Below, in pieces: positions 1 to 30,915 of a stretch of DNA of 30,915 nucleotides. Positions within the stretch are counted from its first letter, which is position 1; each line of letters starts with the position of its first letter. A model generated the notes under the pieces. It ran no database searches and was not told the origin of the DNA. It was given only the letters and a program-made list of their open reading frames with translations. Both the position numbers and the translations under genes were made by a program. Origin of the DNA: Escherichia coli (GTDB lineage: Bacteria; Pseudomonadota; Gammaproteobacteria; Enterobacterales; Enterobacteriaceae); assembly GCF_003334335.1 (NCBI RefSeq), contig NZ_QOWQ01000048.1. One strand, written 5' to 3'.

Positions 1-264
1 ATGAAGTTCCGGCTCGGTGGTTTCGAGGCCATAAAGTCGGCTTACATGGCCCAGGTGCAGTACAGCATGTGGGTGACACGAAAAGATGCCTGGTACTTTG
101 CCAACTATGACCCGCGTATGAAGCGTGAAGGACTGCATTATGTCGTGGTTGAGCGGGATGAAAAGTACATGGCGAGTTTTGACGAGATGGTGCCGGTGTT
201 CATCGAAAAAATGGACGAGGCACTGGCTGAAATTGGTTTTGTATTTGGGGAGCAATGGCGATGA
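1..264 (+). CDS. exo: Lambda-type exonuclease (Red-alpha), C-terminal fragment, 5'-partial at the window edge
   Basis: The 87-aa translation ending ...[11 protein letters not shown] matches the lambda Exo C-terminus as I recall it; the ATG at position 1 is internal to the real gene. Confidence 0.85.
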
Positions 265-443
265 CGCATCCTCACGATAATATCCGGGTAGGCGCAATCA
301 CTTTCGTCTACTCCGTTACAAAGCGAGGCTGGGTATTTCCCGGCCTTTCTGTTATCCGAAATCCACTGAAAGCACAGCGGCTGGCTGAGGAGATAAATAA
401 TAAACGAGGGGCTGTATGCACAAAGCATCTCCTGTTGAGTTAA
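255..443 (+). CDS. Small lambda orf60a-like protein
   Basis: A 62-aa ORF overlapping the exo 3' end, in the position and orientation of lambda orf60a. The true start may be the second ATG at 261. Confidence 0.65.
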
Positions 444-607
444 GAACGAGTATCGAGATGGCACATAGCCTTGCTCAAATTGGAATCAGGTTTGTGCCAA
501 TACCAGTAGAAACAGACGAAGAATTTCATACGTTAGCCACATCCCTTTCACAAAAACTGGAAATGATGGTGGCGAAAGCAGAAGCAGATGAGAGAGACCA
601 GGTATGA
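416..607 (+). CDS. Small lambda orf63-like protein
   Basis: A 63-aa ORF overlapping the previous ORF by 28 nt, the same arrangement as orf60a/orf63 in lambda. Confidence 0.7.
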   Translation: MHKASPVELRTSIEMAHSLAQIGIRFVPIPVETDEEFHTLATSLSQKLEMMVAKAEADERDQV

Positions 608-687
608 CAACCACTGAATGCATTTTTCTGGCAGCGGGCTTCATATTCTGTGTGCTTATGCTTGCCGACATGGGGCTTGTTCAGTGA
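604..687 (+). CDS. Possible 27-aa hydrophobic micropeptide (MTTTECIFLAAGFIFCVLMLADMGLVQ)
   Basis: Its ATG overlaps the orf63-like TGA stop in an ATGA arrangement (604..607). The sequence is a continuous hydrophobic stretch long enough for one transmembrane helix. Confidence 0.35.
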   Translation: MTTTECIFLAAGFIFCVLMLADMGLVQ

Positions 688-899
688 CACCTCAGCAGGA
701 AAACGCCCTTCGCAGCATTGCCCGTCAGGCTAATTCTGAAATCAAAAAAGCCAGACAGCAGTTTCCGGATAAAAACGTCGATGACATTTGCCGTAGCGTA
801 CTGAAGAAGCACCGCGAAACGGTAACGCTGATGGGATTCACACCGACTCACTTAAGTCTGGCAATCGGTATGTTAAACGGCGTCTTTAAGGAACGGTGA
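618..899 (+). CDS. Hypothetical protein in the orf61 region; start uncertain
   Basis: A 93-aa ORF in a third frame, followed by a hairpin plus T-run. It overlaps the micropeptide ORF, so which of the two is expressed is unresolved. Confidence 0.4.
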   Translation: MHFSGSGLHILCAYACRHGACSVTPQQENALRSIARQANSEIKKARQQFPDKNVDDICRSVLKKHRETVTLMGFTPTHLSLAIGMLNGVFKER

Positions 900-921
900 A
901 CATGAAAAGCAAAATCATCAG

Positions 922-945
922 GGAGCTACAGGCTCCTTTTTTATT
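922..945 (+). terminator. Intrinsic-terminator-like hairpin plus T-tract
   Basis: GGAGC-tacag-GCTCC followed by TTTTTTATT. Confidence 0.45.
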
Positions 946-997
946 ATTCGCATTCACCCTCAAGCGTATTAACCAACAATTCAGGGATTAATGGAAG

Positions 998-1219
998 ATG
1001 GCAGACCTCATTGATTCAGCATCAGAAATTGAAGAATTACAGCGCAACACAGCAATAAAAATGCGCCGCCTGAACCACCAGGCTATATCTGCCACTCATT
1101 GTTGTGAGTGTGGCGATCCGATAGATGAACGAAGACGCCTGGCCGTTCAGGGTTGTCGGACTTGTGCAAGTTGCCAGGAGGATCTGGAACTTATCAGTAA
1201 ACAGAGAGGTTCGAAGTGA
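998..1219 (+). CDS. TraR/DksA-family C4 zinc-finger protein (lambda Orf73-like)
   Basis: A 73-aa protein with CxxC...(17)...CxxC (CCECG...CRTCASC), typical of the TraR/DksA zinc finger. Its stop overlaps the next ORF's GTG (GTGA). Confidence 0.8.
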   Translation: MADLIDSASEIEELQRNTAIKMRRLNHQAISATHCCECGDPIDERRRLAVQGCRTCASCQEDLELISKQRGSK

Positions 1220-1467
1220 GCGTAATTCACTCTCAGGCACTGCGTGAAGCGGCAGAGCAGGCAATGCATGACAACTGGGGATTTGACGCGGACCTTTTCC
1301 ATGAGCTGGTAACACCATCGATTGTGCTGACACTGCTGGATGAACGGGAAAGAAACCAGCAGTACATCAAACGCCGCGACCAGGAGAACGAGGATATTGC
1401 GCTAACGGTGAGGAAACTGCGTGTTGAGCTGGAGACAGCAAAAATCAAAACTCAACGAGCAGCGTGA
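1216..1467 (+). CDS. Ea22-like protein, N-terminal part, ended by an in-frame TGA at 1465
   Basis: GTG start overlapping the upstream stop; the 83-aa product resembles the conserved Ea22 N-terminus (recalled, not searched). The same frame stays open after the TGA for 53 more codons, to a TAG at 1627..1629. Confidence 0.6.
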   Translation: MSVIHSQALREAAEQAMHDNWGFDADLFHELVTPSIVLTLLDERERNQQYIKRRDQENEDIALTVRKLRVELETAKIKTQRAA

Positions 1468-1765
1468 GTAGAAGGTGTTATCTCGGATGGAAGTAAGCGT
1501 ATTGCTGAACTGGAGGCCTGGGTTGAATACACAAGAGCTGCATACGTAAGAGCAAAAGACAAGGGAGATTTGATCAGAGTTATTACCCGACAACCAACGG
1601 GATTTTACGCTTACGTACCATGTAATTAGGAATCCTTGAAGTGGCAGCCTAACTGCGGATACACTGAAATGGCGATTTGGTAACATGTTTCGCACAAGGC
1701 TGTTACTACGCTTAAAGATAATCAGCCATGATTAAACGCTTTGTAAAAAGTAAAAGGAAATTACA

Positions 1766-2380
1766 ATGAAAAAATCAATACTAATTTTAGGGCTTACGTT
1801 AATTGTCTCATCTCAAATACCATCGGCAATGGCAAAAAATGAATCAAGACTTTGGGTTGTTGTTGATCGAACGGAAAGACATACCTGCCCTTCAAGTAAA
1901 TGTGGAGTGGCTGGGAAACTATTTTTCAGGGAAGGCGTAGATTTTCTAGAAAAAAAAGGTGAATGGGTTCGTATAACTGAGCCATATTCAGCCTCATGTG
2001 TGGGAGGGGAAAGCGAATATATTAAAGAAGGTAATAAATCCTGCACAAGAAAAAACGGAATCGTCAATGGCAAGTTTTCAGAATGGGTTAAACTTAGTGA
2101 TCTTAGCAGTGAAAGGCCATCAGATCCTGCTGAAAATGCGAGCGGAGATGATACTTTAATCAAAGGATCTGATGACTACCGTATATACAAAAAAGAGTTT
2201 TCTTCGGCAGCTAGGAAGTTAATAAACGAAGGGGTCTGCACGGAAAGCGACTTTAAGGAAATCGGAGGGTGGATGGCATCAAGCAATAAGGGGAAAAACA
2301 TCTATTTCACATATTGCGGAGGAATGACGTTGTCGAACAGAATATACCTAGACGTTAAAAGTGGAAAGACTTTTAGATAA
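1766..2380 (+). CDS. Hypothetical secreted (periplasmic) protein, 204 aa, AT-rich accessory gene
   Basis: SD AAGGAAA 8 nt upstream of the ATG. N-terminal signal peptide MKKSILILGLTLIVSSQIPSAMA with an AMA-K signal peptidase I site and no lipobox. The mature part has 7 Cys. Codon usage is visibly AT-rich compared with the flanking genes. Confidence 0.75.
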   Translation: MKKSILILGLTLIVSSQIPSAMAKNESRLWVVVDRTERHTCPSSKCGVAGKLFFREGVDFLEKKGEWVRITEPYSASCVGGESEYIKEGNKSCTRKNGIVNGKFSEWVKLSDLSSERPSDPAENASGDDTLIKGSDDYRIYKKEFSSAARKLINEGVCTESDFKEIGGWMASSNKGKNIYFTYCGGMTLSNRIYLDVKSGKTFR

Positions 2381-2451
2381 TATGATATTACCAATGACAG
2401 TATTAATTTAATGCCTCCATAGAATTATCTCTAGGAAGTATGTATAAGAAA

Positions 2452-2488
2452 AGCCCGCACAATGAGCTGCTGCGGGCTTTGTGTTATT
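2452..2488 (+). terminator. Intrinsic terminator downstream of the secreted-protein gene
   Basis: AGCCCGCA-(11-nt loop)-TGCGGGCT followed by TTGTGTTATT. Confidence 0.55.
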
Positions 2489-2673
2489 CGCCATATTTTA
2501 TGAAGCAAATACGACACTATAGATAATTAAGCGTTGCTGGTTGTCGATTCCTCACTCACTCCTGTTGATGGCTCTCTTCTTGTATGTGCCATTGAAGGGT
2601 AATATCGAGTAAAAAGATACCGGAAGTATCCGCGCCGCCATGATTGTCTTTCTCCTAATGCAGGAAAAGCAGA

Positions 2674-3012
2674 ATGGCTAAATCATCAGCAGAGCGCAAA
2701 GTCGATCAGAGAGCCAAGCAAGCATCATCCGGTATGCGTAAGCTGGAGCTTGTACTTGATGCTCAGGAAATTGAAATGCTGGATCGTAACTGAGCCACGC
2801 GCCGCTTCAGGCATGCGCCTTACGAGTTTGGTGAGTACATCGCGTTACTGAGCCGCCAGGATGATGCACGTGTGCGCTGGCGTATAAAATCGATCAGCAG
2901 AAAACGTTGCGGTAAGTGCGGCGAGAGAGTTCCTGTTAATTCATGCCCGTGTAATGGTGACTCACAATGCTGGGTGACCAAAGGCTGGCACGAAACAAAA
3001 TTAATGATATAA
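2674..3012 (+). pseudogene. Cys-rich small-protein ORF interrupted by a single in-frame TGA (2791..2793); possibly an ea8.5-type gene
   Basis: Frame 1 is open from 2644 to 3009 apart from the one TGA. The C-terminal half carries CGKC...CPC...C, a zinc-ribbon-like pattern. SD AGGAAA precedes the ATG at 2674. The ORF track shows no intact ORF of 60 aa or more on either strand here. Confidence 0.45.
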
Positions 3013-3040
3013 ATCTCTGTGACATGTCACGGAGGCGGCA

Positions 3041-3469
3041 ATGAAATTAGACCAGCAATATCTAAAAGATCTACTTATCGCATTCGAAAAAACTCATGGC
3101 CCTGACACGATGCTTAGTGAACTAGAGGATAATGGCTTTAATAGATATGACCAAAATTTTATTTTCCATATGCGATTATTATGCGACTACGAATTAATAG
3201 TCAGGGTTGATGGAAAACCTGGGTTCGGTCATATAATGTCCAACGAGTTAGGGGAAGGTGTTGGATATAGTTGGATCGAAGTACCACTGAGGTTGACAGC
3301 AAGAGGGCATGATTTTATTGCTGACTTGCGTCAAAAGGAGGTCTGGCAAACTATAAAAACAAACTTTAAGGATGAGGGAATTAGTACACTAATAAGTGTT
3401 TCAAAATCACTAGCAAAAGGCTTTGCAAGGAAAAAGATAAAAGATATTACAGGAATAGATATTGAATAA
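3041..3469 (+). CDS. Hypothetical cytoplasmic protein, 142 aa, AT-rich accessory gene
   Basis: Strong SD GGAGG 5 nt upstream. No signal peptide or transmembrane segment. Followed by its own terminator. No catalytic motif that I recognise. Confidence 0.7.
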   Translation: MKLDQQYLKDLLIAFEKTHGPDTMLSELEDNGFNRYDQNFIFHMRLLCDYELIVRVDGKPGFGHIMSNELGEGVGYSWIEVPLRLTARGHDFIADLRQKEVWQTIKTNFKDEGISTLISVSKSLAKGFARKKIKDITGIDIE

Positions 3470-3513
3470 TTCTTAGCATCAGCAACTACTGCCTTTGGTG
3501 GAAATTATATCTG

Positions 3514-3540
3514 AACTCGCTACGGCGAGTTTTGTTTTAT
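3514..3540 (+). terminator. Intrinsic terminator downstream of the 142-aa gene
   Basis: AACTCGC-tacg-GCGAGTT followed by TTGTTTTAT. Confidence 0.6.
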
Positions 3541-3551
3541 GGAGATGATAA

Positions 3552-3719
3552 ATGCACTTCCGAGTCACAGGTGAATGGAATGGAGAACCATTCAACAGAG
3601 TTATCGAAGCAGAGAACATCAATGACTGCTATGACCACTGGATGATATGGGCGCAGATAGCACATGCAGACATAACCAATATTCGAATTGAAGAACTGAA
3701 AGAACACCAAGCCGCCTGA
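3552..3719 (+). CDS. Hypothetical 55-aa protein upstream of xis
   Basis: GGAG 8 nt upstream of the ATG; the ORF ends inside a hairpin plus T-run. Confidence 0.4.
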   Translation: MHFRVTGEWNGEPFNRVIEAENINDCYDHWMIWAQIAHADITNIRIEELKEHQAA

Positions 3720-3732
3720 TGGCGGTTTTTTC
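3709..3732 (+). terminator. Terminator-like hairpin just upstream of xis
   Basis: CCGCC-tgat-GGCGG followed by TTTTTTC. In lambda-type logic this would be read through by antiterminated pL transcripts. Confidence 0.45.
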
Positions 3733-3758
3733 TTGCGTGTAATTGCGGAGACTTTGCG

Positions 3759-3977
3759 ATGTACTTGACACTTCAGGAGTGGAACGCTCGCCAGCGACGC
3801 CCAAGAAGCCTTGAAACAGTTCGTCGATGGGTGCGCGAATGCAGGATATTCCCTCCTCCGGTTAAGGATGGAAGAGAATATCTGTTCCACGAATCAGCGG
3901 TAAAGGTTGACTTAAATCGACCAGTAACAGGTAGCCTTTTGAAGAGGATCAGAAATGGGAAGAAGGCGAAGTCATGA
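3759..3977 (+). CDS. xis: Excisionase
   Basis: The 72-aa product MYLTLQEWNARQRRPRSLETVRRWVRECRIF... matches lambda Xis as I recall it; it overlaps the int start by 23 nt, as in lambda. Confidence 0.95.
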   Translation: MYLTLQEWNARQRRPRSLETVRRWVRECRIFPPPVKDGREYLFHESAVKVDLNRPVTGSLLKRIRNGKKAKS

Positions 3978-5025
3978 GCGCCGGGATTTACCCCCTAACC
4001 TTTATATAAGAAACAATGGATATTACTGCTACAGGGACCCAAGGACGGGTAAAGAGTTTGGATTAGGCCGAGACAGGCGAATCGCAATCACTGAAGCTAT
4101 ACAGGCCAACATTGAGTTATTTTCAGGACACAAACACAAGCCTCTGACAGCGAGAATCAACAGTGATAATTCCGTTACGTTACATTCATGGCTTGATCGC
4201 TACGAAAAAATCCTGGCCAGCAGAGGAATCAAGCAGAAGACACTCATAAATTACATGAGCAAAATTAAAGCAATAAGGAGGGGTCTGCCTGATGCTCCAC
4301 TTGAAGACATCACCACAAAAGAAATTGCGGCAATGCTCAATGGATACATAGACGAGGGAAAGGCGGCATCAGCCAAGTTAATCAGATCAACACTGAGCGA
4401 TGCATTCCGAGAGGCTATGGCTGAAGGCCATATAACAACAAACCCGGTCGCAGCCACTCGCGCTGCAAAATCAGAGGTAAGGAGATCAAGACTTACGGCT
4501 GACGAATACCTGAAAATTTATCAAGCAGCAGAATCATCACCATGTTGGCTTAGACTTGCAATGGAACTGGCTGTTGTTACCGGGCAGCGAGTTGGTGATT
4601 TATGCGAAATGAAGTGGTCTGATATCGTAGATGGATATCTTTATGTCGAGCAAAGCAAAACAGGCGTAAAAATTGCCATCCCAACAACATTGCATGTTGA
4701 TGCTCTCGGGATATCAATGAAGGAAACACTTGATAAATGCAAAAAGATTCTTGGCGGAGAAACCATAATTGCATCTACTCGTCGTGAACCGCTTTCATCC
4801 GGCACAGTATCAAGGTATTTTATGCGCGCACGAAAAGCATCAGGTCTCTCCTTCGAAGGGGATCCGCCAACCTTTCACGAGTTGCGCAGTTTGTCTGCAA
4901 GACTCTATGAGAAGCAGATAAGCGATAAATTTGCTCAACATCTTCTCGGGCATAAGTCGGACACCATGGCATCACAGTATCGTGATGACAGAGGCAGGGA
5001 GTGGGACAAAATTGAAATCAAATAA
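3955..5025 (+). CDS. int: Tyrosine integrase, lambda Int type
   Basis: The 356-aa product MGRRRSHERRDLPPNLYIRNNGYYCYRDPRTGKEF... is essentially lambda Int by recollection; its 3' end faces the att site. Confidence 0.97.
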   Translation: MGRRRSHERRDLPPNLYIRNNGYYCYRDPRTGKEFGLGRDRRIAITEAIQANIELFSGHKHKPLTARINSDNSVTLHSWLDRYEKILASRGIKQKTLINYMSKIKAIRRGLPDAPLEDITTKEIAAMLNGYIDEGKAASAKLIRSTLSDAFREAMAEGHITTNPVAATRAAKSEVRRSRLTADEYLKIYQAAESSPCWLRLAMELAVVTGQRVGDLCEMKWSDIVDGYLYVEQSKTGVKIAIPTTLHVDALGISMKETLDKCKKILGGETIIASTRREPLSSGTVSRYFMRARKASGLSFEGDPPTFHELRSLSARLYEKQISDKFAQHLLGHKSDTMASQYRDDRGREWDKIEIK

Positions 5026-5113
5026 TGATTTTATTTTGACTGATAGTGACCTGTTCGTTGCAACAAATTGATAAGCAATGCTTTTTTATAATGCCAACTT
5101 AGTATAAAAAAGC
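5026..5113. other. attL (B-O-P') junction: P' arm with Int arm-type sites and the 15-bp common core
   Basis: The core TTAGTATAAAAAAGC at 5099..5113 is the reverse complement of the lambda att core GCTTTTTTATACTAA. Arm-type sites ATTTTGACTG and ATAGTGACCT lie at about 5034..5053. Host B-side sequence AGGCTTCA follows the core. Confidence 0.85.
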
Positions 5114-5159
5114 AGGCTTCAACGGATTCATTTTTCTATTTCATAGCCCGGAGCAACCT

Positions 5160-6443
5160 GTGAACACATTTTCAGTTTCCCGTCTGGCGCTGGCATTGGC
5201 TTTTGGCGTGACGCTGACCGCCTGTAGCTCAACCCCGCCCGATCAACGTCCTTCTGATCAAACCGCGCCTGGTACCTCTTCTCGCCCGATTCTGTCGGCA
5301 AAAGAAGCGCAGAATTTCGATGCTCAACACTATTTTGCATCCCTGACACCAGGTGCTGCAGCGTGGAATCCTTCCCCGATTACCCTGCCTGCGCAACCTG
5401 ACTTTGTTGTCGGCCCGGCGGGCACTCAAGGTGTAACGCATACCACGATTCAGGCGGCGGTAGATGCGGCAATTATCAAGCGTACCAACAAGCGCCAGTA
5501 TATTGCCGTGATGCCTGGTGAGTATCAGGGAACGGTATATGTCCCTGCCGCTCCGGGTGGAATTACTCTGTACGGTACAGGTGAAAAACCGATTGATGTG
5601 AAGATTGGGCTTTCCCTTGATGGTGGCATGAGCCCTGCCGACTGGCGTCACGACGTCAACCCGCGCGGCAAATATATGCCAGGTAAACCAGCGTGGTATA
5701 TGTACGATAGCTGCCAGAGCAAACGCAGCGACAGTATCGGTGTTCTCTGCTCTGCGGTCTTCTGGTCACAAAACAATGGCCTGCAACTGCAAAATCTGAC
5801 CATCGAAAACACGCTGGGCGATAGCGTAGATGCAGGTAACCATCCGGCGGTGGCACTGCGTACTGATGGTGACCAGGTACAGATTAACAACGTTAACATT
5901 CTCGGTCGTCAGAACACCTTCTTTGTCACCAACAGCGGTGTGCAGAACCGTCTGGAAACAAATCGTCAGCCGCGTACGCTGGTGACCAACAGCTACATTG
6001 AAGGGGATGTGGATATCGTTTCTGGTCGCGGCGCAGTGGTGTTCGATAACACCGAATTCCGCGTGGTGAACTCACGTACTCAGCAAGAAGCGTATGTGTT
6101 TGCACCGGCTACGCTGTCCAACATTTACTACGGTTTCCTCGCCGTAAACAGCCGTTTCAATGCTTTCGGTGATGGTGTGGCGCAACTGGGCCGCTCGCTG
6201 GATGTTGATGCCAATACCAACGGTCAGGTGGTGATCCGTGATAGCGCCATCAACGAAGGTTTTAACACGGCTAAACCGTGGGCCGATGCGGTGATCTCTA
6301 ATCGTCCGTTTGCGGGTAATACCGGCAGCGTAGATGATAACGACGAAATACAGCGCAATCTGAATGACACTAACTACAACCGCATGTGGGAATACAATAA
6401 CCGCGGCGTGGGTAGTAAAGTGGTTGCAGAGGCGAAGAAGTAA
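5160..6443 (+). CDS. ybhC: Outer-membrane lipoprotein of the pectinesterase-like / acyl-CoA thioesterase family
   Basis: GTG start; lipoprotein signal peptide with lipobox LTAC; the 427-aa product matches E. coli YbhC. Confidence 0.93.
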   Translation: MNTFSVSRLALALAFGVTLTACSSTPPDQRPSDQTAPGTSSRPILSAKEAQNFDAQHYFASLTPGAAAWNPSPITLPAQPDFVVGPAGTQGVTHTTIQAAVDAAIIKRTNKRQYIAVMPGEYQGTVYVPAAPGGITLYGTGEKPIDVKIGLSLDGGMSPADWRHDVNPRGKYMPGKPAWYMYDSCQSKRSDSIGVLCSAVFWSQNNGLQLQNLTIENTLGDSVDAGNHPAVALRTDGDQVQINNVNILGRQNTFFVTNSGVQNRLETNRQPRTLVTNSYIEGDVDIVSGRGAVVFDNTEFRVVNSRTQQEAYVFAPATLSNIYYGFLAVNSRFNAFGDGVAQLGRSLDVDANTNGQVVIRDSAINEGFNTAKPWADAVISNRPFAGNTGSVDDNDEIQRNLNDTNYNRMWEYNNRGVGSKVVAEAKK

Positions 6444-6448
6444 GAGCA

Positions 6449-6660
<212 letters not shown>

Positions 6661-30632: not shown

Positions 30633-30708
30633 TGGTGGGTCGTGCAGGATTCGAACCTGCGACCAATTGATTAAAAGTCAACTGCTCTACCAACTGAGCT
30701 AACGACCC
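30633..30708 (-). tRNA. lysQ: tRNA-Lys (anticodon UUU), with encoded CCA
   Basis: The reverse complement reads GGGTCGTTAGCTCAGTTGGTAGAGCAGTTGACTTTTAATCAATTGGTCGCAGGTTCGAATCCTGCACGACCCACCA. The lysQ name is assigned by position and is tentative. Confidence 0.93.
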
Positions 30709-30840
30709 CTTGCGGGATTATGCTGCCTTAATCATTCAGGATGGTGGGTCGTGCAGGATGACTCGACTTCGTCTCGCCCTTCGGGCCGTTGCTAACGCAA
30801 CGTTATCCTTCACGTTCTCTACCAGTAACCACCTTTAAAT

Positions 30841-30915
30841 TGGTGGGTCGTGCAGGATTCGAACCTGCGACCAATTGATTAAAAGTCAACTGCTCTACCA
30901 ACTGAGCTAACGACC
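30841..30915 (-). tRNA. lysZ: tRNA-Lys (UUU), second copy, missing its first 5' nucleotide at the window edge
   Basis: Identical to the 30633..30708 copy over 75 nt. The gene name is tentative. Confidence 0.9.

Follow-up and report, generated by a model that had tools for sequence, protein, structure and literature searches.

Published data indicate that ybhC retains its own transcription start at the left junction of a lambda-type prophage in Escherichia coli

Results

The DNA analysed here, a 30.9-kb stretch of Escherichia coli sequence (the window), carries one end of a prophage next to the host gene ybhC. Among its open reading frames on the plus strand are xis (3759-3977), annotated as excisionase in strain HS30-1, and int (3955-5025), which encodes a lambda-type tyrosine integrase. 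Over the 357 positions of its translation (stop codon counted), this integrase has 5 differences from lambda Int; at the DNA level, identity to lambda over the module is 97.9%. The int gene is followed by the 73 non-coding nucleotides of the P' arm (5026-5098), recognizable by their match to lambda attP, a stretch in which the lambda record annotates Int-binding sites and which contains CAACAAATTGATA at 5061-5073, presumably a match to the H'-type consensus for IHF. Next comes the 15-bp lambda att common core (5099-5113), the crossover region, which reads TTAGTATAAAAAAGC here and corresponds to the misc_recomb feature of J02459; it is the exact reverse complement of the lambda common core as GCTTTTTTATACTAA and sits at the boundary between phage and host DNA. 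Beyond it lies the retained host B arm (5114-5159, plus strand), which comprises the ybhC transcription start, the 5' UTR and a GGAG Shine-Dalgarno sequence at 5150-5153. The ybhC gene itself (5160-6443, plus strand) starts with GTG and encodes a pectinesterase-like outer-membrane lipoprotein, identical in sequence to YbhC of K-12.

In a three-way alignment, the window and lambda are the same up to the last position of the core, and from the core on the window is the same as K-12. P' arm and core (5026-5113) agree with lambda attP at 88/88 positions, in this alignment as well as in a direct comparison, and 5114-5162 is identical to the empty attB of K-12 C600 at 49/49 positions. Strain HS30-1, for which RefSeq annotates the same ybhC start codon, is 100% identical over an 801-bp junction segment. 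All features of a lambda-type attL that can be sought within the 30.9-kb window, namely the core, the P' arm, a continuous B arm and adjacent int and xis genes, were found, and we identify 5026-5162 as the canonical attL (B-O-P'), the left junction formed where a lambda-type prophage has entered the classical attB between ybhB and ybhC; the other prophage end (attR, P-O-B', beside ybhB) and the immunity region fall outside the window. That lambda inserts directly upstream of ybhC is textbook knowledge. With respect to this anatomy, the original prediction for this locus was accurate: it had placed the end of the core at 5113, about 47 bp before the ybhC GTG at 5160 (47 positions, with 46 intervening nucleotides), had int and ybhC on the same strand, which is the plus strand for both, and had the native DNA upstream of ybhC replaced, as borne out by the alignment, in which the ybhB-ybhC spacer is exchanged for the P' arm and the int 3' end.

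Of 5426 complete E. coli genomes, 1911 have an int-ybhC junction of the same kind, which is thus not a chance match; E. coli genomes with an empty site match the window only from position 5095 on. Beyond the junction, the window continues as ordinary chromosome, with ybhC, ybhJ, ybhI, ybhH, the mod genes, galETKM, nadA and tRNA-Lys. The gal genes lie on the int strand, and the order is int, attL, ybhC, gal. Searches against Rfam returned a match to naRNA4, a REP-type element, between ybhC and ybhJ (6512-6582, minus strand), as well as RtT and two tRNA-Lys genes at the end of the window (30636-30915, minus strand). On the phage side, the early-left cargo of the prophage (window 1-3369) is unlike that of lambda; it includes genes for a PAPS-reductase-family protein, a class I SAM methyltransferase, a TraR/DksA (orf73-like) protein and a protein with a dATP/dGTP pyrophosphohydrolase domain, a ZapA-like open reading frame and a truncated Ea22-like gene. 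A locus from Salmonella enterica subsp. arizonae (L011, about 1007-1440) carries an integrase 35% identical to the window Int that adjoins the same TTAGTATAAAAAAGC core. Its P'-like arm differs from that of the window and again carries GCTTTTTTAT, inverted relative to the core.

Mapped transcription starts of ybhC have been published for strains with and without a prophage at this site. For EDL933 (O157:H7), Cappable-seq detected a single gene-associated ybhC start (minus strand, genome position 890874), which was seen under 5 of the 8 growth conditions at an enrichment of about 6-7 (PMC10469882, Table S5). As ybhC begins at 890832 in this genome, the start lies 42 nt upstream of the gene, equivalent to window position 5118, which is 5 nt past the core and in retained host DNA. 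EDL933 is a lysogen with the same junction: a frameshifted lambda-type int lies beside ybhC on its chromosome, P' arm and core are identical to those of the window, and the only difference nearby is a G-to-A exchange at window 5116. For prophage-free MG1655, the ybhC start is given 40 nt upstream of the gene, at window 5120 (RegulonDB v10.5, second-hand via PMC10469882), and the offset of 2 nt (-42 vs -40) is within what the authors of PMC10469882 count as one site. Their search for gene-associated starts reached as far as 250 bp ahead of the start codon, and within this space no other ybhC-associated start was reported for EDL933 in any of the eight conditions, neither in the P' arm nor in the int 3' end. 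The supplements of the MG1655 Cappable-seq and Rend-seq papers contained no ybhC entry. The original prediction had proposed that readthrough from int could drive or perturb ybhC in a lysogen, and had itself named an unchanged start within 5114-5159 as the result that would refute it; with starts at 5118 in the lysogen and 5120 in the non-lysogen, this is the result found. The published data thus indicate that ybhC retains its own start in the host DNA that is kept upon integration.

We collected YbhC orthologue loci from about 50 species of Enterobacteriaceae and took the core motif as the anchor for comparing the DNA upstream. They share a 38-bp island, CTTCCCGTTTCGCTCAA(C/G)TTAGTATAAAAAAGCAGGCT (window 5081-5118), which is conserved in nearly all genera and runs from 19 nt upstream of the core TAGTAT to the mapped ybhC start. 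Across 40 distinct sequences, the mean identity to the consensus was 0.95 for the 19 nt upstream of the core, 0.94 for the core and 0.86 for the next 5 nt, compared to 0.41-0.50 for the flanks and the remaining 5' UTR. The island is present with either a co-directional ybhB or a divergent hutI upstream, indicating that it belongs to ybhC. A further element, AACTTTTT, is found about 10 nt upstream of the island. Among about 40 Enterobacteriaceae, the T.G..TAAAA part of the core never varies, in contrast to TAGTAT and TATAAA, which differ from genus to genus. On comparing the prophage P' arm with the host sequence that it replaces, 8 of the 18 positions nearest to the core match. In five loci from Raoultella, Klebsiella and Enterobacter sp. 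(L026, L028, L037, L039 and L050), the core motif is located 147-197 nt upstream of the ybhC start codon, instead of about 60 nt, a distance that suggests either extra DNA between the promoter block and the gene or a different promoter.

Judging by this conservation, the att core probably carries the -10 element of the ybhC promoter, and TAAAAA (5105-5110, plus strand), 8 nt before the mapped start, is most likely the hexamer in question, considering its position and invariance. The final T that is usual for a -10 is missing from this candidate, and at both mapped starts the base is a pyrimidine. No sigma-70 site was returned at the mapped start when attL and the empty site were scanned against the promoter consensus, which points to a non-canonical ybhC promoter. 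Inspection of the conserved block by eye for sigma-E, sigma-32, sigma-54, sigma-28, CpxR and IHF elements produced none that fits the spacing to the start. The AACTTTTT element resembles a sigma-E -35 element, but was rejected as such because there is no TCAAA-type -10 at 16 nt. Rfam returned nothing in the ybhB-ybhC spacer. The island spacer is conserved as strongly as the -10 itself, which may hint at a DNA-binding factor; our literature search on a ybhC regulator or regulon gave nothing useful. Nor did we find a paper stating that the att core is the ybhC -10 region, and the coincidence of the two in a conserved ybhC promoter may therefore be a new point. Overlap with a host -10 region may account for the conservation of the attB core in enteric bacteria.

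A terminator scan of the plus strand returned two intrinsic-terminator-like hairpins upstream of xis, one at 3513-3532 and a second at 3709-3728, close to xis/pI, where AAGCCGCC-TGAT-GGCGGTTT runs into a stretch of T. As regards the first, phage 434 records annotate terminators somewhere in the stretch that matches query positions 109-1714; the second is also present in lambda (L002, 1006-1025). At 3733-3746 (plus strand), the sequence reads TTGC-N6-TTGC, which, in terms of lambda biology, marks a putative promoter of the CII-dependent pI type. Between the int stop codon and ybhC, the scan found no terminator-like site. In lambda, the tI/sib hairpin is found on the P-arm side of attP, some 150-190 nt past the core; the window does not contain it, as integration moves it to attR. 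In a stable lambda lysogen pL is repressed and pI, which needs CII, is inactive, with int being essentially silent; after induction, N-modified pL transcripts ignore terminators.

Several further sites around the junction resemble signals. A 12-bp A/T-rich inverted repeat of the type GCTTTTTTATAA / TTATAAAAAAGC at 5079-5114 joins the A-tract of the P' arm to the core and occurs in attL and attP, but not in attB. As a terminator, this hairpin was rejected: it is A-U rich, has no U tail and, at a fold z-score of -1.4, is no better than shuffled sequence. Likewise rejected, as a promoter, was TTGATA-13-TATAAT in the P' arm (5068-5092), given its short spacer and the lack of an EDL933 start. A weak promoter-like sequence, ATGACA-16-CAAAAT, lies in the int 3' end at 4985-5012 (plus strand) and is found in lambda as well; no EDL933 start was called there. 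On the minus strand of lambda attP (L002, 2427-2398), a promoter-like TTTACG-18-TATACT reads toward int with the att core as its -10; its -35 is located in the P arm, so that the site is absent from the attL of the window.

The only comparison of ybhC expression between a lambda lysogen and its non-lysogenic parent that we found is a 2007 microarray study of K-12, of limited sensitivity, which covers time points before and after UV treatment (PMC2147009, Table S4). At t0, the log2 ratio (lysogen/non-lysogen) for ybhC was -0.12 (p 0.80); it was -0.65 (n.s.) at 20 min post-UV and rose to +1.26 (p 0.0097) at 40 min and +1.63 (p 0.0006) at 60 min, corresponding to a 2.4-3.1-fold increase 40-60 min after induction. 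The ratios for ybhB, on the other side of the prophage, were similar, with -0.08 at t0 and +1.35 at 60 min. In the same study, gal was up about 13-fold and a 300-kb zone of raised transcription formed around attB after induction, for which the authors invoke escape replication plus N antitermination. Although up at 40-60 min, ybhC is not listed among the genes that were still up with a replication-defective prophage. Lysogeny itself thus caused no measurable change in ybhC expression, while induction led to a few-fold rise. This rise fits classical escape replication combined with N-antiterminated readthrough, and the array data do not separate the two. The proposal that readthrough from int drives or perturbs ybhC is not supported for the uninduced lysogen, where no change from the parent was seen, and survives as a possibility for the induced one.

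An engineered insertion at the same site provides a second set of published expression values. In strain 83972, a 12.5-kb cassette with expressed foreign genes was recombineered into the chromosome; by locating the primer arms, we place it 16 bp before the core, between the bases equivalent to 1488 and 1489 of the K-12 locus, with no deletion. In this construct ybhC was the most down-regulated gene, with log2 values of -3.4 (lag phase), -3.0 (exponential phase) and -1.6 (transition to stationary phase), which makes it 8-11-fold lower in the former two and about 3-fold lower in the latter. The insertion strain was also more sensitive to H2O2, and ybhC has been linked to H2O2 tolerance. The drop in ybhC shows that sequence upstream of about -35, or readthrough from ybhB, contributes to its expression, and a comparable effect might be anticipated for a prophage. 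The K-12 array and the persisting EDL933 start, on the other hand, argue that any effect of a real lambda-type prophage on ybhC is small. Elsewhere, ybhC has been employed as a stable reference gene for qRT-PCR, consistent with a constitutive promoter.

Discussion

We consider it likely that, at this canonical lambda-type attL, the ybhC promoter straddles the att core, and that the resulting hybrid promoter works at about the normal level as long as the prophage is uninduced. Transcription would begin at 5118-5120, in host DNA that is retained and 5-7 nt past the core. The -10 of the promoter, for which TAAAAA (5105-5110) is the best candidate, would fall within the 15-bp core and be left unchanged by integration, as recombination by definition does not alter the core. 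Only the -35 and upstream half of the promoter would then be swapped for the P' arm with its IHF-binding site, and the start, leader, ribosome-binding site and coding sequence of ybhC would all remain its own. In the uninduced lysogen, ybhC should be transcribed from this hybrid promoter at about its normal level and receive no transcription from int, given that pL is repressed, that pI needs CII and that two terminators precede xis; the int gene of this prophage would then be as silent as that of lambda. Upon induction, N-modified pL transcripts would be expected to continue from int across attL into ybhC and further toward gal, with tI/sib at the far end of the prophage, and this readthrough, together with escape replication, would produce the few-fold rise in ybhC. 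Integration at this site would thus be approximately neutral for ybhC transcription until the prophage is induced.

A different reading of the same junction, in line with the original prediction, is that the native promoter is gone and that ybhC is driven or disturbed either by readthrough from int or by a phage promoter located in the P' arm or near the 3' end of int. The layout is certainly permissive for this, with int and ybhC on the same strand, no terminator-like site between them, tI/sib absent from the window and the weak promoter-like ATGACA-16-CAAAAT at 4985-5012; ybhC does rise after induction, and a precedent exists in HK022, which replaces the torS promoter in a like manner (PMC6814406). 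However, the sole start within 250 bp in EDL933 is at -42, in host DNA and no more than 2 nt from the MG1655 start, and no change in ybhC level was seen in the uninduced K-12 lysogen. Transcription approaching from further upstream would meet the two terminator-like hairpins before xis, and on the strength of established lambda biology both pL and pI should be off in a stable lysogen. We therefore regard this explanation as very improbable, and for the uninduced state as largely refuted.

A subtler alternative accepts the retained start and proposes that integration nevertheless weakens or re-regulates ybhC, in that the conserved -35 half, the AACTTTTT element and readthrough from ybhB are lost and the IHF-binding P' arm is placed over the -35, an effect that would concern about one third of E. 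coli strains. The 19 nt that adjoin the core upstream and are lost in the exchange are indeed 95% conserved, and the P' arm restores just 8 of the 18 nearest positions; moreover, the insertion in 83972, which leaves more of the native sequence in place, cut ybhC 8-11-fold and raised H2O2 sensitivity. That construct, however, adds 12.5 kb of expressed foreign genes and creates other junction bases, and is thus not a clean model for a prophage. The EDL933 start can be read either way: it was above threshold in only 5 of 8 conditions, at a modest enrichment of about 6-7, but it is still used. Considering in addition the log2 ratio of -0.12 at t0 in the K-12 lambda lysogen, we find this alternative possible, if rather doubtful. 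In a related and equally tentative proposal, the att core would be no arbitrary intergenic target but the -10/discriminator of a deeply conserved constitutive ybhC promoter, which integration splits, with the IHF- and Int-binding P' arm taking the place of its conserved -35 half, rendering ybhC dependent on IHF or Int or subtly lowering its expression; if true, ybhC expression would be altered in the roughly one third of E. coli strains that are lysogenic at the site. Compared with both, a hybrid promoter of near-normal strength remains our preferred explanation. In either case, the 83972 data are a warning to users of attB as a supposedly neutral landing pad, as the insertion cut ybhC expression and altered peroxide tolerance.

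The arrangement bears comparison with known systems. In HK022 lysogens, torS loses its native starts and is transcribed from one that lies within the prophage (Carey et al. 2019, PMC6814406). As at ybhC, a lambdoid prophage is placed directly upstream of a host gene and the upstream DNA is exchanged; the difference is that the ybhC start occupies the same place in host DNA with and without a prophage. In the literature data for EDL933 and K-12(lambda), neither loss of the native start, nor an outward start at the prophage end, nor altered expression in the uninduced state was found. By class, the junction belongs with the attL of lambda itself, between gal and bio (ybhC and ybhB), with which the window shares an identical 15-bp core, the 73-bp P' arm, the K-12 flank and the orientation. 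The phage in the window differs from lambda in its early-left genes, and the best overall match of the module is to phage Chlobot or mEp332. An increase in ybhC, ybhB and gal after induction is known for K-12(lambda) and would be predicted for the strain of the window. The geometry that underlies escape synthesis, escape replication and sib-tI retroregulation in lambda is the same here, with transcription from the pL side passing through int and attL toward gal, and tI/sib detached.
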